Shown: positions 54,482-63,659 of the stretch, piece by piece
Layout of the letters: each line of letters opens with the position of its first letter
Numbering within the stretch: position 1 is the stretch's first letter
Assembly (NCBI GenBank): GCA_040377305.1
Contig: JBEIPA010000014.1
Coordinates: 32,001 to 96,000 of the forward strand
From: Flavobacteriales bacterium
Lineage (GTDB): Bacteria > Bacteroidota > Bacteroidia > Palsa-965
Direction of reading: 5' to 3'
DNA: 64,000 nt
The notes under the pieces: model-generated
The model's database searches: none
The model's input: only the letters and a program-made list of their open reading frames with translations
Told to the model about the DNA's origin: nothing
Made by a program: the position numbers and the translations under genes

Positions 54482-55885
54482 TTACCCATCCATTCGCACG
54501 ATACGCGGACTGAACTTTCCTACGATGTCGACTAAATCAACTTGCGCCTCCATCACCTGAAAAATGTCTTTGTACGCATGTGGCGATTCATCCAGACCAC
54601 CACCGATTAACGTCACGTTATTTTCTTTCAGCACAGATTTCATCTCTGCATTCGTTACGTTTTTCATTGCTGCTGTACGCGACATTTTACGTCCCGCTCC
54701 ATGAGAAGCAGAGTTGATGGAAATGCTCGCACCTTTTCCGCGTACAATGAATCCCGGTGCAGTCATCGATCCCGGAATAATTCCGAGAACGCCTTTGCCG
54801 GCAGGTGTTGCACCTTTACGATGCACGATTACATCTTTGCCGTTGAATTTTTCTTTCCATGCAAAGTTGTGGTGGTTTTCTACCATCGCGATGGGTTCAA
54901 CACCAAGCGCAGCTGCAATCTTCTCGTGAATTTTGTGATGACACGCCGAAGCATAATCACCAGCGAGATTCATTGCAAGCCAATACTCTTGTCCTTCCTG
55001 AGTTGAAAGATCAAGCCACGCAAGATGTTTTGCTTCCTGCGGCAAACGACATTTCTCCATTGCCACTTTCGTGTAATGGTTCGCAATCGTTGCGCCAAGT
55101 CCGCGCGAACCGGAATGCGACAACAACGCGAGGTATCGACCTAATGGAAGATTGAACTCGTTGTTCTCATCGCTGATATCAACAACTCCGAATTCCACAA
55201 AGTGATTTCCCGAACCGGATGTTCCCATTTGCTTCACTGCTTTCAGCTGCAGACCTTTCAGCAATGGAATTTCATCGAACAACTTTCGGTCAGTCACTTC
55301 AAACTCTTTGTTCTCCTTGAACTCTTGTCCTGAACCAAAGAGTGTATTATCCGTAAGCACTTTGTAAAGTCCGCGCGAGTCGGTGTCGATGATCTCGTGC
55401 GGAGTCGGAAAAATACTCAGGCACATTCGGCAACCGATGTCGACGCCAACTCCATAAGGAATAATTGCGTTTTCCGTAGCGAGTACACCACCGATCGGCA
55501 ATCCATAACCCTGATGCGCATCCGGCATCAAAGCACCGGCAACTGCAACCGGCAAACGAATTGCCACATCCATTTGTTTACGCGCACCATCTTCGATCTG
55601 ATCTCCACCGTAAATTGCGTAAGATCCTTGTTCGATGCGCAATGCAATTTCGGGACCTTCCGCTTCTTTCGGCTTTTCCGTCAACGCATCCGCAATCGCA
55701 GCGAGGTTCGTGTCGTCGAGATAATCCGCAGGTGCAGCAAGAATATTTTTCAGCATCTCCATCACATCTTCACGTGATGATTTGCGGTAATACTTTTCAA
55801 TGATGTTGAGGGCAATTCCCACAACGCGTCCTTGTTTGTATCCAAGTTCGCGAAGGTGATCTCCGGTGATGTTTAATTTGTTCAT
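54482..55885 (-). CDS. rtcB: RNA 2',3'-cyclic phosphate/5'-OH ligase RtcB with N-terminal extension
   Basis: MPDAHQGYGLPIGGV, GVDIGC, GNHFVE, HSGSRG, HHN, HRKGATPA, PGSM, SHGAGR and DESPHAYK motifs. Confidence 0.96.
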   Translation of the reverse strand: MNKLNITGDHLRELGYKQGRVVGIALNIIEKYYRKSSREDVMEMLKNILAAPADYLDDTNLAAIADALTEKPKEAEGPEIALRIEQGSYAIYGGDQIEDGARKQMDVAIRLPVAVAGALMPDAHQGYGLPIGGVLATENAIIPYGVGVDIGCRMCLSIFPTPHEIIDTDSRGLYKVLTDNTLFGSGQEFKENKEFEVTDRKLFDEIPLLKGLQLKAVKQMGTSGSGNHFVEFGVVDISDENNEFNLPLGRYLALLSHSGSRGLGATIANHYTKVAMEKCRLPQEAKHLAWLDLSTQEGQEYWLAMNLAGDYASACHHKIHEKIAAALGVEPIAMVENHHNFAWKEKFNGKDVIVHRKGATPAGKGVLGIIPGSMTAPGFIVRGKGASISINSASHGAGRKMSRTAAMKNVTNAEMKSVLKENNVTLIGGGLDESPHAYKDIFQVMEAQVDLVDIVGKFSPRIVRMDG

Positions 55886-56514
55886 TTTACTAATTGTATT
55901 TCTTGTGTAACATAAATTCGAGGTTGTTCAACTTTATTTGTTGACTCGAATTTCATAGCGATGATTTCTTCGCAAGCGCGAGTAATGTGCACAACCATTT
56001 CATCGACATTAATATTTAATATCCCGTCTGCACGAAGAATTGTACCTCCACCTTGCGCATGTGAAAACCTGAGTTTGCCCTTTGGGGCAAAACAGTGAAC
56101 TAAGCCGCATCGCATTTCATCATATAGATCAAATGTTCCATTGGATTCTGCTTTTAAATACGCTCGATAATCCTTAAGAGATGCGAGATTCCGAATGGAG
56201 CGCTCAAAGTCCTCACGAACAGTGCCCGATTTATCCCAAACTGTTGGGGAATTTTCATTTATACACTTTCCGAAGAATTCAATTGCCGAACTCATGCAAA
56301 TTGCCCCGAGCCATGGCGATACTTTAACCACAGCTTGCATTTCGTCAATAAGTACAGTCCGCATAAATTGCTTAGTTGGAATGGGCATCTGCACAACAAA
56401 ATGTGATTTATCATCAGTAAAGCCAAAGACAACATTTTTCATTTGTTCATCCGTGAAAAGGTGCTTTCGTTGAAACTCTTGAAGGATCGATTGAACTGAT
56501 ATTTCTTTCATCAT
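55882..56514 (-). CDS. putative HEPN-domain protein
   Basis: SSAIEFFG helix followed by MRCGLVH (Rx4H); ATGA overlap with rtcB. Confidence 0.6.
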   Translation of the reverse strand: MMKEISVQSILQEFQRKHLFTDEQMKNVVFGFTDDKSHFVVQMPIPTKQFMRTVLIDEMQAVVKVSPWLGAICMSSAIEFFGKCINENSPTVWDKSGTVREDFERSIRNLASLKDYRAYLKAESNGTFDLYDEMRCGLVHCFAPKGKLRFSHAQGGGTILRADGILNINVDEMVVHITRACEEIIAMKFESTNKVEQPRIYVTQEIQLVK

Positions 56515-56552
56515 GATTATTCTATACTAATCAATTTACAAAATTTGTTTTG

Positions 56553-56623
56553 ACGACCGACAGGGATTCGAACCCCGATCCTCAGATTCGTATTCTGAGA
56601 TTCTTCCGTTGAACTATCGATCG
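56553..56623 (-). tRNA. tRNA-Arg(ACG), no encoded CCA
   Basis: CGATCGA/TCGGTCG acceptor, TCAGA-ATACGAA-TCTGA anticodon arm, GGTTCGAATCC T arm. Confidence 0.85.
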
Positions 56624-56630
56624 AAATACA

Positions 56631-56653
56631 GTGTCGGGATACGATCCCGACAC
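56631..56653. repeat. small palindrome GTGTCGGGAT-ACG-ATCCCGACAC (related copies near 58529-58553 and 58651-58671)
   Basis: 10-bp perfect stem; the motif recurs within this locus. Confidence 0.65.
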
Positions 56654-56656
56654 CTC

Positions 56657-56788
56657 ACAGGCAAAAAGCGAAAAGAGACTGTTTGCATTGCTCTACCACT
56701 GAGCTACACACAACTTTCGCTATGTGGCCGGATTCGAACCGGCGTCCCATGGATTGGAAGTCGAAGTAACTCTTTTCTACGGCACTGT
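56657..56788 (-). ncRNA. Y RNA of YrlA type (Y1): Ro-binding-like stem plus circularly permuted tRNA domain
   Basis: Order is T arm (GCCGGTTCGAATCCGGC), GAAA-capped acceptor stem (CACATAGC GAAA GTTGTGTG), D arm (TAGCTCAGTGGTAGAGC), enclosed by a terminal stem; lies near the TROVE gene. Confidence 0.88.
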
Positions 56789-56794
56789 TCATTG

Positions 56795-56868
56795 GGTGTT
56801 AGATCGGTTTCGATCCGATTACCTCTTGCTTCACAAGCAAGCGCTCTCCCGAGTGAGCTACAAACACC
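56795..56868 (-). tRNA. tRNA-His(GTG) with G-1:C73 and atypical T loop (ATCGAAA)
   Basis: CTTGC-TTGTGAA-GCAAG anticodon arm; 8-position acceptor with one mismatch. Confidence 0.8.
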
Positions 56869-56873
56869 GTGTT

Positions 56874-56957
56874 CAGTAGGCAGTTTGGCAGTAGTGCAGT
56901 TGGCAGTCAAAATATAATTCTCTGACTGCCTACTGCCCAACTGCTTACTGCCTACTG
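56874..56957. repeat. REP-like imperfect palindrome of GGCAGT units (second copy at 58336-58421)
   Basis: cagtaggcag...gactgcctactg arms; near-identical architecture in both copies. Confidence 0.75.
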
Positions 56958-56963
56958 TTCTTG

Positions 56964-57037
56964 TACTCTGTGTGGGATTCGAACCCACGTGATCTGGTCG
57001 AAAACCAGATATACTAGACCAACTATATGAACAGAGC
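56964..57037 (-). tRNA. tRNA-Glu(TTC), no CCA
   Basis: GCTCTGT/ACAGAGT acceptor, TCTGG-TTTTCGA-CCAGA anticodon arm, GTGGGTTCGAATCCCAC T arm. Confidence 0.85.
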
Positions 57038-57039
57038 CT

Positions 57040-57117
57040 GATTGATTTGCGGATGACGCGCCGGGTTCTCTCCTTTGGAGAGTTAGAGAGGCGCGGCGCG
57101 TAATCCGCAAATCAATC
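57040..57117. repeat. long spacer hairpin between tRNAs
   Basis: gattgatttgcggat.acgcgccg / cggcgcgt.atccgcaaatcaatc. Confidence 0.75.
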
Positions 57118-57122
57118 TTCAG

Positions 57123-57196
57123 TCGCGACAGCAGGATTCGAACCTACATCTTCTCCAGTCCAAGTGGAGAGGCTTAGCCAATTAGCCGACCTCGCG
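57123..57196 (-). tRNA. tRNA-Pro(TGG), no CCA
   Basis: CTCCA-CTTGGAC-TGGAG anticodon arm, GTAGGTTCGAATCCTGC T arm, C1:G72 and A73. Confidence 0.82.
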
Positions 57197-57285: not shown

Positions 57286-57390
57286 TGTGAGGAAAAAATC
57301 ACAGAAAAGACGAAAGCGCCATCTTTCGATGTCAGGATTCGAACCTGTTTCTTCCTGCCACGAAGTATCTCTTCTGTTACGTCACTCACA
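57286..57390 (-). ncRNA. Y-like RNA Y2: shared scaffold plus T arm and GAAA mini-hairpin
   Basis: TGTGAG-TGACGTA-ACAGAAGAG-ATACTTCG...CAGGTTCGAATCCTG...CTTTTCTGT-GATTTTTTC-CTCACA. Confidence 0.78.
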
Positions 57391-57418
57391 AACTCAAAGA
57401 ACAAATTCAATTTCAAAA

Positions 57419-57513
57419 TAAGCGGGCAAAAGTCAATCAGAGTCTGCCGGGATTTGAACCCGCGTCTTTCGACTTTCTACCAAAGAAGTATCTCTGATTT
57501 ACGGCACCGTTTA
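57419..57513 (-). ncRNA. Y-like RNA Y3: shared scaffold plus D-loop-like TGGTAGA, GAAA hairpin and T arm
   Basis: TAAACGG-TGCCGTA-AATCAGAG-ATACTTC...CGGGTTCAAATCCCG...CTCTGATT-GACTTTTGC-CCGCTTA. Confidence 0.78.
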
Positions 57514-57523
57514 CTTTTAACTA

Positions 57524-58051
57524 TTATCTCGTCGGGATCTTCAATCCCATTTTCTTCATCGCAAGCAATGCTTCTGCATTTCCGATTGCGTCGTTGACCG
57601 GGTTGTGATCATGACGCGTTTTGCGAAACAATCGCTTCCACTCGCTGTTCAGTCCTCCATCCATTTTCATTCCACAATACAGATCACCGATTCGTCTGCC
57701 TGAAAATCCAAACGGATTTTTTCCCAGGTAGAAATGGAAGTAATAATTAATCCACTGCCAATCGAACGCGAGGTTATCGCTGATGAATATTGCTTTGCCG
57801 TCGGATGTTGCGTTCAACCATTCGGAGAAACGTTTCATCACTTCGGCGGGCTCCTCGAACGACTCGTGTTGCCCGCGTGTGAAACCACTTACTGCAAGTG
57901 CATCCGGAATCCATTCTTTGGAAATTGGTTGCGTCTTTCCGTAGAATGTTTTCGCGAGTGTGGGTTCTATCACCACTGCACCGAAGCAAACCATCGAATA
58001 TTTATTTGGGATGGGCCCATCGGCCTCTACATCCACTACTATGTAACTCAT
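57524..58051 (-). CDS. DEDDh 3'-5' exoribonuclease (Rv2179c/RNase AS-like)
   Basis: VDVEADGP, SDNLAFD and HNPVNDA motifs; likely start MSYIVVD. Confidence 0.85.
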   Translation of the reverse strand: MSYIVVDVEADGPIPNKYSMVCFGAVVIEPTLAKTFYGKTQPISKEWIPDALAVSGFTRGQHESFEEPAEVMKRFSEWLNATSDGKAIFISDNLAFDWQWINYYFHFYLGKNPFGFSGRRIGDLYCGMKMDGGLNSEWKRLFRKTRHDHNPVNDAIGNAEALLAMKKMGLKIPTR

Positions 58052-58083
58052 TTTGTTTTTGTTTTTAATCAATTTAATAATTT

Positions 58084-58156
58084 AAGCTGGCAACAAACTC
58101 GCAGAGGTTTTGGTCTAATTAACAGTTAGAAGTAACTCTGCAATACGGCACAGCTT
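58084..58156 (-). ncRNA. Y-like RNA Y4: minimal scaffold with only a short hairpin insert
   Basis: AAGCTG-TGCCGTA-TTGCAGAG-TTACTTC...CTCTGCGA-GTTTGTTGC-CAGCTT. Confidence 0.75.
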
Positions 58157-58214
58157 GCCGATGTGCCGATTTCCAATATGCCAATATGCCGATTGGAAAT
58201 ACCTCAATAAAATT

Positions 58215-58332
58215 CGGAAGCAAAAAACGATTCGGGTGGGGCGTCGCAATGAGGATTTGCACCTCTTCCTGGTTTTTACATCAGGACCCTTGCCCCCTGT
58301 CGAGCGAAGTATCCCGGCTCTACGGCATTCCG
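58215..58332 (-). ncRNA. Y-like RNA Y5: scaffold plus D-armless tRNA-like insert
   Basis: CGGAA-TGCCGTA-GAGCCGGG-ATACTTCG...TCCTGA/CCAGGA hairpin, GAGG-TGCAAAT-CCTC T arm...CCCGAATC-GTTTTTTGC-TTCCG. Confidence 0.75.
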
Positions 58333-58335
58333 TTT

Positions 58336-58421
58336 CAGTAGGCCGTTTGGCAGGCGTTCAGTAGGCAGTCAAAATTTATTCCTAATGACTGCCGACTGCA
58401 CTACCGCACTACTGCCTACTG
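58336..58421. repeat. REP-like GGCAGT palindrome, second copy
   Basis: Similar to 56874-56957. Confidence 0.72.
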
Positions 58422-58426
58422 ATTAA

Positions 58427-58646
58427 ACAACGGTAACTGGCAACAAGTCTGCTTTCTGCTTTCACAGAATACGGCCGTCCTATTTCTGTATTGCTACAGA
58501 CAGTTGACTGGTAATCATCATCCGCATGGTGTCAGGATCTGAAATCCTGATACTGCGCACTCAGATTAACGTTCGCGAACCACAGTTACCCGTGCATCAC
58601 TACCTTAGGACCGTTATCGAAGTATGACCCGTTTACGACACGTTGT
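58427..58646 (-). ncRNA. Y-like RNA Y6: scaffold plus about 170-nt insert containing 23S rRNA H69/H70-like sequence
   Basis: ACAACG-TGTCGTA-AACGGGTC-ATACTTCG-ATAACGGTCCTAAGGTAG...CGGCCGTA...GACTTGTT-GCCAGTTAC-CGTTGT. Confidence 0.75.
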
Positions 58647-58686
58647 GTGATGTCAGGATCCTATCCTGACAGTGCACATAATTTTT

Positions 58687-58766: not shown

Positions 58767-60281
58767 CTACAACTCGAGTTGTTTTATCATCGCGATTGCA
58801 TCTGTACCGTTTTCTGCAGCATACAATACGTCGAACACTTTATCTGACCAGCCCGCGATGAGTGTTACATCGTCGCGCTGCACACTGATTGGTGTGTTAC
58901 CGTAACCTGCGAGGTCGAACAAGTACAGTTTCGCCATTGGCGCAATCTGTTTGTATTCTTTCCACGCCGTCTGCAACGAATCACCGTCAGCTTTGGTATT
59001 CCACATCTGGCAGTCAGTGAACATCATCACTTTGTCCATCACAACATTGCGCTGAACAAGATCTTTGATCACCAGGTAACCATTTGTGGCGTAACCAACT
59101 TCACCTTCCCGCTTGTAGTACTCATCAACATTCGCAAGTACTCCACGGTTAGGCATGTTGATTACCTTCCAGCGATCTCCGAACATTCCGGAAACCACTC
59201 GTTCACACTTGCTCTGCATCAGCATACCCAGTACCAGACCGATATCGAACAAATACACTTTGCTCTTCGCCGAGATTGGTTTCTGCATTGAACCCGAAAC
59301 GTCACACGCAATCAACACACGTGTTTTGTAATCGAATCCGCTGATGTTTTTCGCTGAAGCTACAATTGCATCTTCCAGCGCGTTAAGTATCATCGACACG
59401 TAATCAGCTTTCAGCACTTTCACTTCACGGTATGCAGACAGGAAACGGAATGGCAACTGCTTCGATTTCGCAACCTGGTTTGCATCAGAAAGCGTATCAC
59501 ACACTTTTTTGATTGCATCCCATGATACACCCGCTTCAATCATGTTACGGATGTTACGCAACATCGCCATGTATCCCAGCTTACCGCTGAAGATCAGTTC
59601 TTCCCATTTCGCACGAACCGCAAGCTCTTTTGCTTTTGCATCAGCGAATTTTTGCTGACCCAAAGCAGAAAGTTCAGTTTCCCAGGTATAAGCAACAGAC
59701 AGCTCTTTCGCAGCGATCTTGTTGAAGACTGCTTGCTGTTCATCACTTTTCGCTTTCGGGTGAACAAGGAACAATGCATCACGCAACGTTACTGCCGCTT
59801 CACGGTTGTATTTCGAGAACTGGTATTCATCAAAACGATTGAACGCCTTTGCGAGTCCTTTCTGTACCTGTTTCGAAAGCTTGTTCAGTTTCTTAGTTCC
59901 CGAACGGTTGTTCGCCAGTTGGTAGTAAGCCAGAAGCTCAGTGATCTCATCAGCACGCTGAACGACACCGTTCACCGCTTTGGATACAACTATATTTCCG
60001 GAGTTACGTTTTGCAAGTTCGACTGCAAGCACCTGTGGAATAGAACGCATGTACATTTTGTTACGTGCATACACCGCAAGCTTCGCCACGAATTCAGCAT
60101 CTGTCTTCTCCATGAGATCCACGATACGTTGAAGACGCTCGTTTCCTTTCTCATAGAACGAATCGCTCAGTCCTGCGGTTACTACCGCTGAATACAGTTC
60201 GAGCTCAGGAGTCATTGCGAATGCTTTTGCGCCTTCGTAATTAGTGACTGCTGTTTTACGTTTGAAGATGTTGAATTTCAT
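58767..60281 (-). CDS. rsr: TROVE domain protein (Ro60/Rsr orthologue) with vWA domain
   Basis: NYEGAKAF, YARNKMYMRS, TWE, GYMAMLRNIRN, QLPFRFLSAY, MIDAS DVSGSM and AGWSD motifs. Confidence 0.93.
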   Translation of the reverse strand: MKFNIFKRKTAVTNYEGAKAFAMTPELELYSAVVTAGLSDSFYEKGNERLQRIVDLMEKTDAEFVAKLAVYARNKMYMRSIPQVLAVELAKRNSGNIVVSKAVNGVVQRADEITELLAYYQLANNRSGTKKLNKLSKQVQKGLAKAFNRFDEYQFSKYNREAAVTLRDALFLVHPKAKSDEQQAVFNKIAAKELSVAYTWETELSALGQQKFADAKAKELAVRAKWEELIFSGKLGYMAMLRNIRNMIEAGVSWDAIKKVCDTLSDANQVAKSKQLPFRFLSAYREVKVLKADYVSMILNALEDAIVASAKNISGFDYKTRVLIACDVSGSMQKPISAKSKVYLFDIGLVLGMLMQSKCERVVSGMFGDRWKVINMPNRGVLANVDEYYKREGEVGYATNGYLVIKDLVQRNVVMDKVMMFTDCQMWNTKADGDSLQTAWKEYKQIAPMAKLYLFDLAGYGNTPISVQRDDVTLIAGWSDKVFDVLYAAENGTDAIAMIKQLEL

Positions 60282-60327: not shown

Positions 60328-60348
60328 CTACGCAATGGTCTTGCGCAG
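60328..60348. promoter_or_regulatory. palindromic operator CTACGCAA-N5-TTGCGCAG upstream of the TROVE gene
   Basis: Matches 61490-61510; lies 8 nt from a -7-like box AACATTTG (60312-60319, minus). Confidence 0.72.
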
Positions 60349-60434
60349 TTCGATTTATTTTAACTTTTTGTTTTAATCGCCTGATTTTCAGTTGGCATTA
60401 ATTCGTTTTTTCAATCGCAACATTTATTGCGGCG

Positions 60435-60507
60435 TTGGAAAGGAAGGGCTCGAACCTTCGACCTTGTGCGTATAAGGCACGTGCTCTTACCACTGAGCTA
60501 CTCTCCA
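60435..60507 (-). tRNA. tRNA-Ile(TAT), rare anticodon, no CCA
   Basis: TGGAGAG/CTTTCCA acceptor, GTGC-CTTATAC-GCAC anticodon arm, GAAGGTTCGAGCCCTTC T arm. Confidence 0.85.
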
Positions 60508-60514
60508 AGTCTTG

Positions 60515-60586
60515 CGGCGCGGATTGGACTTGAACCAATATAATCTCCCTTAACAGGGGAGAGCTCTACCATTGAGCTACCAGGCC
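60515..60586 (-). tRNA. tRNA-Asn(GTT), no CCA
   Basis: CTCCC-CTGTTAA-GGGAG anticodon arm, ATTGGTTCAAGTCCAAT T arm, G73. Confidence 0.85.
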
Positions 60587-60591
60587 ATTTG

Positions 60592-60664
60592 CGGTAACGA
60601 TGGGATTCGAACCCACAACTTTCCGATAGACAATCGGACGCTCTAGCCGTTGAACTACGCTACC
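60592..60664 (-). tRNA. tRNA-Asp(GTC), no CCA
   Basis: GGTAGCG/CGTTACC acceptor, TCCGA-TTGTCTA-TCGGA anticodon arm, G73. Confidence 0.87.
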
Positions 60665-60669
60665 ATTTG

Positions 60670-60742
60670 TGGACAAGGAAGGAATTGAACCTTCATCTTC
60701 TGATCTTCAGTCAGCCGCATTCACCGCGTTTGCTACCTGTCC
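60670..60742 (-). tRNA. tRNA-Phe(GAA), no CCA
   Basis: GGACAGG/CTTGTCC acceptor, CTGA-CTGAAGA-TCAG anticodon arm, GAAGGTTCAATTCCTTC T arm. Confidence 0.8.
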
Positions 60743-60748
60743 GTTTTG

Positions 60749-60822
60749 TTGACCCACCAGGGCTCGAACCTGGAACCCCCACTTTAAAAGAGCGGTGCAT
60801 CTAACCATTGAGCTATGGATCA
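60749..60822 (-). tRNA. tRNA-Lys(TTT), no CCA
   Basis: TGATCCA/TGGGTCA acceptor, CCGCT-CTTTTAA-AGTGG anticodon arm, CCAGGTTCGAGCCCTGG T arm. Confidence 0.86.
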
Positions 60823-60834
60823 ATATTTCTTCGC

Positions 60835-60891
60835 TTGTCCTCCTTCGGCAAAGCCTGTGCTGAGCGAAGTCGAAGTGCTCAGTCTGACAAG
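60835..60891. repeat. Bacteroidota REP-like element (CTGAGCGAAGTCGAAG); complementary half CTTCGACTACGCTCAG near 60981-61010
   Basis: The two halves are complementary and bracket tRNA-Gln. Confidence 0.55.
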
Positions 60892-60894
60892 TCG

Positions 60895-60965
60895 TTGTCG
60901 GAAATGGATTTGAACCACTATAGCCAGATTCAAACTCTGGTGTCCTACCATTAGACGATCCGACA
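60895..60965 (-). tRNA. tRNA-Gln(TTG), no CCA
   Basis: TGTCGGA/TCCGACA acceptor (U1:A72), CCAGA-GTTTGAA-TCTGG anticodon arm. Confidence 0.86.
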
Positions 60966-61011: not shown

Positions 61012-61043
61012 TAAAAAAACCCGGTCGTGTGCGGACCGGGTCT
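61012..61043 (-). terminator. attenuator terminator 2
   Basis: AGACCCGGTC-CGCACAC-GACCGGG-TTTTTTT; the 5' arm can alternatively pair with GTGGACCG (61081-61088). Confidence 0.8.
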
Positions 61044-61064
61044 AACAAATCAGTTCAACTGATT

Positions 61065-61154
61065 TCAGTTATGACAACATCGGTCCACGAATTTTCCTTT
61101 CTGAAAATCTCGTTCGCTAAAATTGGGCAAGGCTATATAACTATGTTTCTTCAT
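61065..61154 (-). CDS. putative leader peptide 2 MKKHSYIALPNFSERDFQKGKFVDRCCHN
   Basis: 29-codon uORF containing the antiterminator and ending about 20 nt before terminator 2. Confidence 0.7.
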   Translation of the reverse strand: MKKHSYIALPNFSERDFQKGKFVDRCCHN

Positions 61155-61254
61155 GGTGTTTCTTTCTCTTCAACTTTTTTATTGTCAGGCCGAGTAGTCA
61201 TTGCAGTCTGCGGAGCAACTTGTGCTTGAAGATCGACGTACCGAGGTCGGGCAA

Positions 61255-61284
61255 TAAAAAAGCCCCGAATCTCTCCGGGGCTTT
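61255..61284 (-). terminator. attenuator terminator 1
   Basis: AAAGCCCCGGA-GAGA-TTCGGGGC-TTTTTT; the 5' arm can alternatively pair with CGGGGT (61312-61317). Confidence 0.8.
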
Positions 61285-61307
61285 ACTTCAGTTATATCCT
61301 AAAGCAA

Positions 61308-61385
61308 TTACACCCCGTGCAACAGACGATCTCCTTCGAGATTTATCTGTTTGCGTGTTTGCGGATATGTAAAATGCTTTTTCAT
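61308..61385 (-). CDS. putative leader peptide 1 MKKHFTYPQTRKQINLEGDRLLHGV
   Basis: 25-codon uORF with an A-rich upstream region; its last codons form the antiterminator. Confidence 0.7.
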   Translation of the reverse strand: MKKHFTYPQTRKQINLEGDRLLHGV

Positions 61386-61404
61386 TTTTCTTCTTATTCT
61401 GCGA

Positions 61405-61412
61405 CAAATATA
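61405..61412 (-). promoter_or_regulatory. Bacteroidota housekeeping-sigma -7 box TATATTTG for the leader/tRNA transcript
   Basis: Perfect TAnnTTTG about 20 nt upstream of the leader 1 ATG. Confidence 0.65.
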
Positions 61413-61489
61413 TTGTAAAGAAATAATGCGATCCAAATTATTCTGCAATTATTTTTCATGATTTGCAGTATTTACTTCACTTTGTCCAA

Positions 61490-61510
61490 CTGCGCAAATA
61501 CATTGCGCAG
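61490..61510. promoter_or_regulatory. palindromic operator CTGCGCAA-N5-TTGCGCAG upstream of the WYL gene
   Basis: Perfect 8-bp arms; lies 7 nt from a -7-like TATCTTAG (61518-61525). Confidence 0.72.
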
Positions 61511-61545: not shown

Positions 61546-62574
61546 ATGCCGATAAACAAACTCGCACTCATCCGCTACAAGACAATTGATAACTGTCTGC
61601 AGAACCGTTTCCGCAAATGGACACTTGACGATCTAGTGGATGCATGCTCGCGTACACTGGAAGAGTTCGAAGGAATTACACAAGGAGTAAGCAAGCGTAC
61701 TGTTCAGCTCGATATTCAGACGATGCGCAGTGAAAAGCTAGGATACAATGCTCCTATTGTGGTCAGCGACAAGAAGTATTATTCGTACGAAGACAAGAAT
61801 TACAGCATCACGAATATTCCGTTGACGAGTCAGGATTTAGGAACGCTCACGGAAGTTGTAGATATTCTACGCCAGTTTAAAGGGTTCGGTTACTTCGAAG
61901 AGCTCAGCACAATGGTGAACAAGCTCGAGGACAAAGTGCAGTCTCAGAAGAACAAAGGTCGCTCGTATATACACTTTGAGAAAAATGATTTGCTAAAAGG
62001 TCTCGAGTACATCGAATCATTGCACAAGGCGATCATTCGTCAGAAAACGATTGACGTATTATATCAGTCGTTCAAAGCACGTGAAGCGACAAGCATCATT
62101 TTTCATCCTTATCTGCTCAAGGAATACCGCAACCGCTGGTTTGTGATCGGCTCAACGCAAAAGAAAACAATTCTTACTCTGGCACTGGATAGAATTTTTT
62201 CTGTGAAAGAAGTCGGTGGAGAGAAATACATCAAGAATACCTTCTTTGATGTTGACTCGTACTTTGATGATACGATTGGCGTTACGAAGAATCTCGGGAT
62301 TCGACCACAATTGGTCGTGATGAAAATTGATCGTACGAATGCGCCATACGTAATCACAAAACCGATTCACCACACGCAGAAGATTCTGAAGACAGAACCC
62401 GACGGAATGATTTTCAGTATTAACGTGACGTGGAATTTTGAGTTGGAAAGAGAAATCCTTGGGTTTGGTGAACAGATAAAGGTGTTATCGCCAAAGAGAT
62501 TGCAGAATAAGATTAGCTGGAGGGTGAAGAGGATGGTGGAGAGGTATGAGGAACTTCAACCAAATGAACGATGA
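61546..62574 (+). CDS. HTH-WYL-WCX transcriptional regulator
   Basis: SKRTVQLDIQ HTH, HPYLLKEYRNRWFV...LALDRI WYL core, ILGFGEQIKVLSP C-terminus. Confidence 0.93.
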   Translation: MPINKLALIRYKTIDNCLQNRFRKWTLDDLVDACSRTLEEFEGITQGVSKRTVQLDIQTMRSEKLGYNAPIVVSDKKYYSYEDKNYSITNIPLTSQDLGTLTEVVDILRQFKGFGYFEELSTMVNKLEDKVQSQKNKGRSYIHFEKNDLLKGLEYIESLHKAIIRQKTIDVLYQSFKAREATSIIFHPYLLKEYRNRWFVIGSTQKKTILTLALDRIFSVKEVGGEKYIKNTFFDVDSYFDDTIGVTKNLGIRPQLVVMKIDRTNAPYVITKPIHHTQKILKTEPDGMIFSINVTWNFELEREILGFGEQIKVLSPKRLQNKISWRVKRMVERYEELQPNER

Positions 62575-63659
62575 GCGGCAAAGTAAATTCATTTCACGAA
62601 GCAGTTCGAACGAGACCTGGCATGTATATTGGCAGATTGGGTCCCGCTGGTTTCGGTTATCTTGTCAGCGAACTGATTAGAGATTTTGCTGCTGACCTGC
62701 AAGCAAAAGAAGCGCATGTGAGGATCGACATAAAAGGGAAGGTCACAATTAAATTTCCCGAAATAAATTGCACTCAGGCTGACCTTTATACTTTAATAAA
62801 AAATGGTCGGATGAGTCGCAGTTCTTCATTTTGGAGGACATCACTTGCCATTATCCCGCCGTTATCAAAAGCGACCACGCTCAAAATCGGAAGCACTAAG
62901 TATACTGTCAGCCGCAACGCTAAACTTAATCCTCACTTCGAGTCCGATACCGCTAAAGCTATTTCACGATTTGAAATAACCTTTCAACCGGATGCAGGTA
63001 TTCTCAAAGCCAAAGCGCCTGAAATACTTACTTTATGTGCTCGCTTGCATGAGCTCACGGTGGTTTGTCCCGGATTAAAAATCACTTACCGTGATGACAA
63101 TACAAAACCATTTACGCAAATGGTCTGGCATACTCCTGAAGGAATACGCACACTATTGGCGCCGGCACGAAATATGTTTTATGAAAAGAAATTAGAAGGA
63201 GGTTTTTCCTTTAACGAAAAAGGACTACGCGGTGAGGTGTACTGGTTATGTGCAAACGGGGGATGTGATCCTATCTATTCATTTGCTAACGGTGAACGTA
63301 CTGTGAAAGGCGGATCGCATGTGAAAGGATGCGTACAAGGTATACTGGACGCGTTGAAGGATTTAGTCAAAGGAAATGGCGAGAAATATGACTTCAGTGT
63401 GTCTCGTGCAATCCGACATCAATGTCTCGTAGTTTCCGTTTGGGGAAACGGCCTAAGCTATGCGGGCAGTACAAAAGAATGTCTGGAACATAAACCTACA
63501 AACCAAATTCTCCGCAAACTTGTTGGTGCGCACATGGAGCAGCTGTGTGCGTCGAATCCAAAGGATGCTATACAACTTACGTATCGGTTGCAGAAATGGA
63601 ATCTTGCGGAGATGTATCCTGAATTGTATTCCGGAAAATCAAGGAAAAAGAAGAAGTAA
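62571..63659 (+). CDS. degenerate GyrB/ParE N-terminal-like protein (GHKL-like plus transducer, no TOPRIM)
   Basis: AVRTRPGMYIG, ITFQPD, RLHEL...PGLKI, SFANG..T..GGSH..G and YAGSTKE motifs; lacks DNGRG and GLHGVG. Confidence 0.78.
   Translation: MSGKVNSFHEAVRTRPGMYIGRLGPAGFGYLVSELIRDFAADLQAKEAHVRIDIKGKVTIKFPEINCTQADLYTLIKNGRMSRSSSFWRTSLAIIPPLSKATTLKIGSTKYTVSRNAKLNPHFESDTAKAISRFEITFQPDAGILKAKAPEILTLCARLHELTVVCPGLKITYRDDNTKPFTQMVWHTPEGIRTLLAPARNMFYEKKLEGGFSFNEKGLRGEVYWLCANGGCDPIYSFANGERTVKGGSHVKGCVQGILDALKDLVKGNGEKYDFSVSRAIRHQCLVVSVWGNGLSYAGSTKECLEHKPTNQILRKLVGAHMEQLCASNPKDAIQLTYRLQKWNLAEMYPELYSGKSRKKKK

Follow-up and report, generated by a model that had tools for sequence, protein, structure and literature searches.

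The classical attenuators trpL, hisL and pheL have runs of one or two residues in their leader peptides, and their cargo is biosynthesis genes. In mycobacteria the whiB7 gene is preceded by a uORF attenuator, where translation favours an intrinsic terminator and stalling favours an antiterminator (PMC10274678). This attenuator senses general translation stress as well as shortage of the amino acids encoded by its uORF; in M. smegmatis the uORF encodes all amino acids but cysteine, and loss of its start codon raises read-through (PMC10274678). Two uORF attenuators in one leader are found in the Salmonella mgtCBR operon, and in E. coli toiL one uORF senses stalls at many positions (PMC3641672; PMC12121999). 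The Salmonella rsr-yrlBA-rtcBA operon contains Ro60, Y RNAs, and RtcB and is induced by tRNA damage (PMC7790460).

The Anabaena trn operon is reportedly regulated by the repressor TrcR. This operon (L-array) is a silent bank of extra tRNAs that is induced by translation stress and co-regulated with rtcB (PMC8421152).

The locus described here lies in a window of 64,000 nucleotides, the whole stretch of DNA that was analysed, from a Flavobacteriales bacterium. It resembles whiB7, the response of which is set by uORF composition, in that a uORF would govern the choice between terminator and antiterminator; the two are not homologous (PMC10274678). While whiB7 has a single, Ala-enriched unit that controls a transcription factor in Actinobacteria (PMC10274678), there are here two serial and compact units (25-58 codons) that appear to be selected for diversity, and the genes under direct control would be those for tRNAs and RNA repair. 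The geometry is that of trpL, hisL, and pheL, and unit 2 has the sequence motif of two pheA leaders, but the uORFs contain one codon each of many residues and the cargo is tRNA and repair. The two mgtCBR attenuators answer different signals (ATP and proline) additively, while both units here are predicted to read the same signal (PMC3641672). Unlike the present leader, toiL works by translation attenuation with Rho termination and has a toxin-antitoxin cargo (PMC12121999). The rsr-yrlBA-rtcBA operon is controlled by RtcR, a sigma-54 activator binding tRNA fragments, and has no tRNA array; the text of the paper mentions neither attenuation nor Bacteroidetes (PMC7790460). The trn operon is regulated through promoter repeats by a protein at the promoter, unlike the leader attenuation proposed here, and the text of the paper mentions neither attenuation nor a leader (PMC8421152).

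A literature search, with most subscription papers outside its scope, gave no work in which tRNA arrays or Ro60/RtcB operons are subject to attenuation by a leader peptide, and no description of RNA-repair operon control in Bacteroidota was found. The type of mechanism is known (whiB7-like), while its use on tRNA and RNA-repair banks was not found in the literature searched. If the proposal is true, Bacteroidota gain a protein-free sensor of tRNA loss, and tRNA genes come under leader-peptide attenuation, so that the tRNA supply measured by the ribosome feeds back on tRNA transcription. One could then also test directly what kind of damage calls for the spare tRNAs, Ro60, Y RNAs, and RtcB, and a 400-nt cassette of this kind could act as a tRNA-damage reporter.

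The leader and the genes behind it

Bacteroidota promoters have the consensus TTTG / TAnnTTTG. Such a promoter and two uORF-antiterminator-terminator units make up the leader:

61405..61437, minus strand: Bacteroidota-type promoter, TTTG (61437-61434) + 21 nt + TATATTTG (61412-61405)
61308..61385, minus strand: uORF1, 25 codons; all ten tRNA residues lie in its predicted sensing window (codons 2-19, 61382-61329)
61312..61317, minus strand: candidate antiterminator strand 1, CGGGGT, in the final uORF1 codons; pairs with GCCCCG of terminator 1
61259..61284, minus strand: predicted intrinsic terminator 1, 26 nt past the uORF1 stop
61065..61154, minus strand: uORF2, 29 codons; all ten tRNA residues lie in its predicted sensing window (codons 2-19, 61151-61098)
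61081..61088, minus strand: candidate antiterminator strand 2, GTGGACCG; pairs with CGGTCCGC of terminator 2
61017..61043, minus strand: predicted intrinsic terminator 2, 24 nt past the uORF2 stop

The promoter box, the coordinates of uORFs and terminators, the peptides, and the pairings given in the first-pass annotation were all recovered when the sequence was rechecked. Both units display what is expected of an attenuator, a short ORF ending just before an intrinsic terminator (26 and 24 nt). It had also been noted that both uORFs start with MKKH. This is so in this genome, but comparison with related leaders led us to reject the idea that the shared start is conserved, since a uORF2 that begins with MKKH is peculiar to this genome. 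The start codons show no excess of A at -3 over background, and an Rfam scan of the leader for T-box or other families gave only chance-level matches (E 0.3 or higher). A 16-codon ORF between the units (61201-61151), whose stop overlaps the uORF2 start (ATGA), is not conserved in the related loci L001 or L002.

The surroundings of the leader contain the following features:

61546..62574, plus strand: gene for a WYL-WCX transcription factor, divergent (Pfam WYL 7e-12, WCX 4e-11)
61490..61509, no strand assigned: palindrome by the WYL gene, candidate WYL-factor operator, one of only two genome matches
60434..60965, minus strand: six tRNA genes, Gln(UUG), Lys(UUU), Phe(GAA), Asp(GUC), Asn(GUU), Ile(UAU) (ARAGORN)
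60434-60507, minus strand: tRNA-Ile(UAU), single copy in the genome
60328..60347, no strand assigned: palindrome before TROVE, candidate WYL-factor operator, probable internal promoter
58767..60281, minus strand: TROVE / Ro60 (Rsr) orthologue (Pfam TROVE 2e-30)
57360..58675, minus strand: six Y-RNA-like stem motifs, starting at 58671, 58640, 58327, 58150, 57506, and 57383 (custom motif scan)
58072-57524, minus strand: 3'-5' exoribonuclease gene, flanked by Y-RNA-like stems (Pfam Rv2179c-like 1.6e-6)
56552..57196, minus strand: four tRNA genes, Pro(UGG), Glu(UUC), His(GUG), Arg(ACG) (ARAGORN)
56776-56659, minus strand: YrlA-like RNA amid the four-tRNA group (Rfam YrlA 39.8 bits, E 3.9e-6; below the gathering score of 69)
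55882..56514, minus strand: 210-codon ORF, no Pfam family matched
54482..55885, minus strand: RtcB RNA ligase (Pfam RtcB 3e-81)

On the minus strand the order after the leader is six tRNAs, TROVE, the Y-RNA-like stems, the exoribonuclease, four tRNAs with the YrlA-like RNA, the ORF, and rtcB. ARAGORN finds ten tRNA genes in all, six directly behind the leader and four 3.8-4.5 kb downstream, behind TROVE; since this program misses degenerate tRNAs, array sets are possibly incomplete. A second genomic copy exists for every array anticodon except Ile(UAU), and the array is therefore regarded as a spare tRNA set. Three CAU tRNAs are also encoded in this genome. Ro60, Y RNA, and RtcB, the combination known from rsr-yrlBA-rtcBA, are all present at the locus, with a YrlA match below the gathering score. 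RtcR (CARF-AAA+) is absent as divergent regulator, that position being held by the WYL-WCX gene, and there is no RtcA among the eight ORFs scanned at the locus.

Short repeated elements are found after terminator 2 (61010-60980, 18 genome matches) and between tRNAs (60890-60845, five genome matches). Many related arrays likewise contain tRNA-Ile(UAU), and in L124 / L286 the array ends in an ARAGORN-called tRNA with a CUA anticodon (labelled Pyl).

Conservation, pairing and folding of the two units

Tandem ribosome-coupled attenuation was the interpretation first put forward for this leader. It is supported by the conservation and covariation of the units, by their fixed geometry, and by the folding model. 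Attenuation as such we consider highly probable. It is also likely that the two serial units are ribosome-coupled transcription attenuators which hold the spare-tRNA/RNA-repair operon off until translation stalls. A ribosome reaching the end of the uORF would cover the antiterminator strand, and the terminator would fold. If the ribosome stalls in codons 2-19, the antiterminator would be left free to capture the 5' arm of the terminator, and the polymerase would read through. A ribosome that never starts would likely also free the antiterminator and thus cause read-through.

The tandem uORF-terminator layout was observed in 59 loci, which are this one and 12 found via TROVE alone plus 46 found via a pattern for terminator 2. 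This unit-2 pattern did not cover unit 1, and a metagenome scan with it gave 120 loci, 46 of them also with unit 1. Of 204 loci 59 were kept, those dropped being pattern loci with a GC content over 56% and loci that lacked two terminators; these loci are kin, and counts of homologues are not independent. Among the TROVE-anchored loci 13 of 84, this one included, passed the two-tandem-terminator filter, while most TROVE loci are without a leader; the named relatives bearing TROVE-anchored loci belong to the Bacteroidota. In the family of a Chitinophagaceae genome the unit-2 pattern is found in 38 of 301 genomes and the reversed control in none. A second set from this family has a unit-1 uORF at 33 of 40 places, most of which lead to tRNA arrays, rtcB, or TROVE. 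A comparison of homologous leaders had been proposed as a check, and it shows uORFs of high amino-acid diversity across the tandem loci and, in unit 1, terminator/antiterminator covariation. The distance from stop to terminator is 23-34 nt in unit 1, and in unit 2 it is 18-35 nt. To judge from these genomes, the tandem leader is widespread in Bacteroidota. A scripted check of viral contigs gave 16 unit-2 pattern matches, none with a tandem leader before a tRNA array or TROVE/RtcB.

As to the samples, L098 is one row in the locus, diversity, pairing, folding, and window counts and was left out of the alignments and of the covariation and kin-paired tests; none of the conclusions depends on it. 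One alignment, in which L116 stands in the wrong orientation, was kept out of the counts. L029, which has three units, and the mis-picked uORF2 of L159 were left out of the diversity, pairing, folding, and window tests, and L138, a duplicate of L136, from the pairing test onward. The second set omits L286 and L321 (duplicates), L295 and L308 (pheA leaders), L291 and L313, as well as L304 for uORF1.

Single leaders were also seen. Those after rtcB in L037, L047, L058, and L065 are uORF1-like (QLHI motif) internal attenuator candidates before a small kinase-like ORF, and in L058, L060, and L065 single leaders precede small tRNA clusters on the opposite strand.

The potential of the uORF 3' end to pair with the terminator arm is directly observed (-15.7 versus -8.5 kcal/mol for shuffled sequences), and 37 of 48 loci beat at least 57 of 60 shuffles. 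Conservation and pairing of the unit-2 motif are circular in the loci found by the pattern; a unit-2 duplex of -5 to -14 kcal/mol is present in all 12 TROVE-found tandem loci other than L029. In unit 1, the variable, distal antiterminator-terminator positions can pair in 165 of 235 cases, compared to 149.1 +/- 3.8 with partners permuted, and there are clean swaps, for instance TTGCAGGGC with GCCCTGCAG in L066. The antiterminator is mutually exclusive with the terminator and conserved, in loci that are kin and not independent. Depending on the lineage, antiterminator 2 reads as DR, RP, or GP in different frames and antiterminator 1 as HGV or CGAC, so that conservation of the RNA element is independent of the peptide. 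For the unit-1 alignment, RNAalifold returned four terminator pairs only and was uninformative beyond the terminator.

Termination and switching are inferred from these pairings and from a model in which the ribosome footprint is masked codon by codon on the nascent RNA, with equilibrium folding. For uORF1 the model predicts that the 5' arm of the terminator is captured with the A site at codons 2-19 and released once the A site lies between about codon 20 and the stop. For uORF2 of this window it predicts the same switch if the RNA behind the ribosome is held unpaired, and none if this RNA is free. With regard to the co-transcriptional folding proposed as a check, the equilibrium model supports the envisaged switch for unit 1, and for unit 2 here only with the upstream RNA unpaired. 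Modelled read-through is less probable with the ribosome at the stop than with a first-half stall in all 48 unit-1 and all 53 unit-2 models, the means for unit 1 being 0.10 and 0.95, respectively. A strict on/off cut was reached by 41 of 48 unit-1 models but by 22 of 53 unit-2 models. When the ribosome is absent, read-through is the outcome preferred by the equilibrium model, and in this it agrees with whiB7; a 9-pair 1:2 helix, of the type that in classical attenuators protects and gives termination without translation, nonetheless forms when the uORF1 region is folded alone.

Three leaders of the same genome with the same geometry served as controls, namely the His leader of hisG, a Cys/Met leader, and a Leu/Ser/Tyr leader, and their control-codon runs end at the edge of the modelled sensing window. 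Phe/Tyr-run leaders of prephenate dehydratase (L295, L308) use the antiterminator/terminator sequence motif of unit 2, hinting that this unit may have been recruited from an amino-acid attenuator.

The Cys/Met-run attenuator (L251, G000:C50 near 23328, minus strand) is followed first by tRNA-Cys and then by a 708-codon ORF. This ORF may encode a sulfite reductase.

What the uORFs encode

No classical run of one or two control residues is found, with 23 distinct codons among the 25 of uORF1 and likewise among the 29 of uORF2. Across the family the uORFs have 25-58 codons, and their composition bias is directly observed. uORF1 has 17.5 distinct residues in 29 codons, compared to 14.3 in a proteome null (2433 long ORFs of this genome, applied to all hosts) and 14.7 from base composition, and is above the diversity null in 48 of 49 loci and in 19 of 19 after clustering at 50% identity. 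uORF2 has 18.5 distinct residues where 16.5-16.9 are expected and exceeds the null in 52 of 55; it varies widely in sequence and length and still retains the bias. Diversity is specific to the coding frame, which exceeded its shifted counterparts in 86 of 96 and in 88 of 108 comparisons, the second set is above the null in 28 of 30 and 32 of 34, and the bias persists inside the sensing windows. Taken together, uORF1 and uORF2 lack none of the 20 amino acids at 35 of 45 loci, where 6.6 such loci are expected, and at 25 of 30 in the second set, where 5.7 are expected. Ala is depleted (log2 -0.55), so that these are not Ala-enriched leaders of the whiB7 kind, and the cargo is tRNA/TROVE/RtcB. Selection appears to act on which residues the uORFs contain and not on their order, and, if the proposal is right, the uORFs give a measurable sign of selection for amino-acid diversity in an otherwise drifting peptide.

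The uORFs are probably translated, and stalling is the likely inducing signal. A broad sensor rather than a single-amino-acid one had been envisaged from the start, and conservation, covariation, fixed geometry, and the folding model favour it; family-wide, uORFs that sample nearly all 20 residues would act as a general alarm. Pangram leaders stand before rtcB or TROVE at six loci with no tRNA detected downstream, five of them with all 20 residues, and the ancestral role is therefore likely to have been a general alarm for RNA repair.

The first-pass annotation had further stated that both uORFs contain all ten residues served by the downstream tRNAs (K, H, F, P, Q, R, I, N, E, and D). Translation confirms this, and for this lineage the match is real; as a family-wide rule, however, it gives way to high diversity, found also where there is no downstream tRNA. 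The shuffle test that had been suggested gave chances for all ten of 0.016 (uORF1) and 0.029 (uORF2) in base shuffles. They are 0.007 and 0.021 in proteome windows, and about 0.0008 each within the 18-codon antiterminator-free stretch, or 0.005 each given 14 distinct residues. All of these figures are post hoc, the match itself having drawn attention. The share of cognate codons in the uORFs of this window is not above base-composition expectation (P = 0.24 and 0.055), and all ten residues are present in both uORFs at only 11 of 46 loci, and in both sensing windows at 4 of 44 (second set 4 of 30).

That the uORF codon set is tuned to the array has about an even chance, or a slightly higher one; the events that speak for it are few, and several individual tests are not significant against base composition. 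In this lineage, which belongs to a clade with shorter uORFs, only residues in both sensing windows should open both gates, and these are the ten of the array plus one to three variable extras. Here they are the ten with Leu and Tyr (Thr, Gly, Ser, and Ala occur in one sensing window, Trp, Cys, and Val in neither), in L001 the ten with Thr, and in L002 the ten with Gly, Thr, and Tyr. The intersection common to these three loci, which have the same ten tRNAs, is exactly the ten. Between the three genomes uORF1 is 22-24/25 identical, so that its match amounts to about one event, while the uORF2 found here shares only 9 of 29 residues with either of the other two, in a different order. Arg is encoded in their sensing windows by CGC or CGA without exception, and tRNA-Arg(ACG) can read both. 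Where the arrays of relatives are smaller, the sensing windows hold five of five (L020, with E, P, H, and D lost from the intersection) and five of six (L147), and L029 has three units before eight specificities, holding eight, seven, and eight of them.

Unrelated leaders before small arrays have matching runs. Just outside the window (G000:C7 about 97260-96290, L225:2761-1795, minus strand) a neighbouring array of tRNA-Leu(UAG), Tyr, Leu(UAA), Ser(GCU), and Tyr has its own single attenuator, the uORF of which contains 11 consecutive Leu/Ser/Tyr codons (11/25, P = 0.004); the run is kept in G015 (L227). In L058 a Pro/Tyr-rich leader precedes tRNA-Pro and tRNA-Tyr (6/29, P = 0.03).

There is an even chance that the leader is a self-referential inventory check of tRNAs. 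In this, two units forming a serial AND gate would have shared codons that evolved to match the tRNA genes behind, and loss of a replaceable tRNA, for instance to an anticodon nuclease, would induce its replacement together with the repair kit. If this is true, leader peptides in Bacteroidota list the parts of the tRNA bank, from all-20 pangrams to tailored subsets.

A possible though less probable account has the same attenuation mechanism and differs on tuning alone. The units would answer general translation stress (antibiotics, ribosome damage, lost initiation), diversity would widen the trigger, and the ten-tRNA match would be an inherited coincidence. The exact ten-residue intersection despite the turnover of uORF2, the loss of E, P, and H from the sensing windows of smaller-array relatives, and the Leu/Ser/Tyr and Pro/Tyr runs are hard to reconcile with it. 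The six pangram loci fit it well, as does the fact that the ten are common residues in most arrays. Kin-paired tracking of array content also leans this way. In the long-uORF clade it falls short of significance, with 10 pairs against 6 (P = 0.23) and, for presence, 5 against 4; the overall result depends on three pairs of the short clade that are not independent (sign P = 0.08 and 0.19). A plain permutation test gave P < 0.001 in both sets and is not relied on, since kin share both array and uORFs. The same account can further draw on the Ile codons. ATA is, as had been reported, the sole Ile codon in both uORFs, but the suggested link to the rare tRNA-Ile(UAU) does not hold up, ATA use being 29:20 with that tRNA and 32:23 without (P = 1). 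A specific ATA trigger was rejected, as ATA makes up half of the Ile codons with or without the tRNA and is equally frequent in the +1 frame. ATA nonetheless accounts for just 10% of the Ile codons in this genome's long ORFs.

RNA structure and the WYL factor

It is improbable that the residues of the uORFs are a by-product of a conserved RNA structure or of a protein-bound leader (riboswitch-like, or bound by Ro60 or WYL), with translation playing a minor part. Some features of the RNA do point in that direction. The motif ACATAT persists while its reading frame changes, the residues FSPKGDY are encoded by a TAGTCC/GGACTA hairpin, and the uORF region folds into a hairpin that includes the antiterminator. 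However, the frame is open from an invariant ATG to a stop at a fixed distance, the diversity is specific to the coding frame and is kept by the variable uORF2, and no Rfam family matches the leader above chance.

The palindrome CTRCGCAA-N5-TTGCGCA has only two matches in the genome, at 60328-60347 and 61490-61509, and in relaxed form it lies within 400 nt before TROVE in 60 of 84 loci across Bacteroidota. It is very improbable that regulation of the locus falls to the WYL factor alone, with terminators that damp expression constitutively or serve as processing signals: most TROVE loci do use a WYL gene and palindrome with no leader, but seven loci with the leader directly before TROVE (L054, L055, L066, L071, L074, L101, and L102) are without both, and the antiterminators are conserved and covarying. 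Leader and WYL control therefore look like alternatives. In WYL-only loci two copies of the palindrome stand about 110 nt apart, while here the leader and six tRNAs stand between them, which suggests that these were inserted.

In the attenuation reading favoured here, the first six tRNAs are surely under the control of the leader. It likely gates the remaining genes as well, by read-through, since the terminator scan gave nothing ahead of TROVE. TROVE onward may have an additional, WYL-dependent start.

A gyrase-B-like ORF is found at 62571-63659. Next door (L225:961-8447, G000:C7 95.4-103 kb) there are further RNA-repair genes, encoding a metallophosphoesterase, an RNA ligase, an HD-kinase (AAA_33), an RF-1-domain protein (PrfH-like), and a second RtcB.
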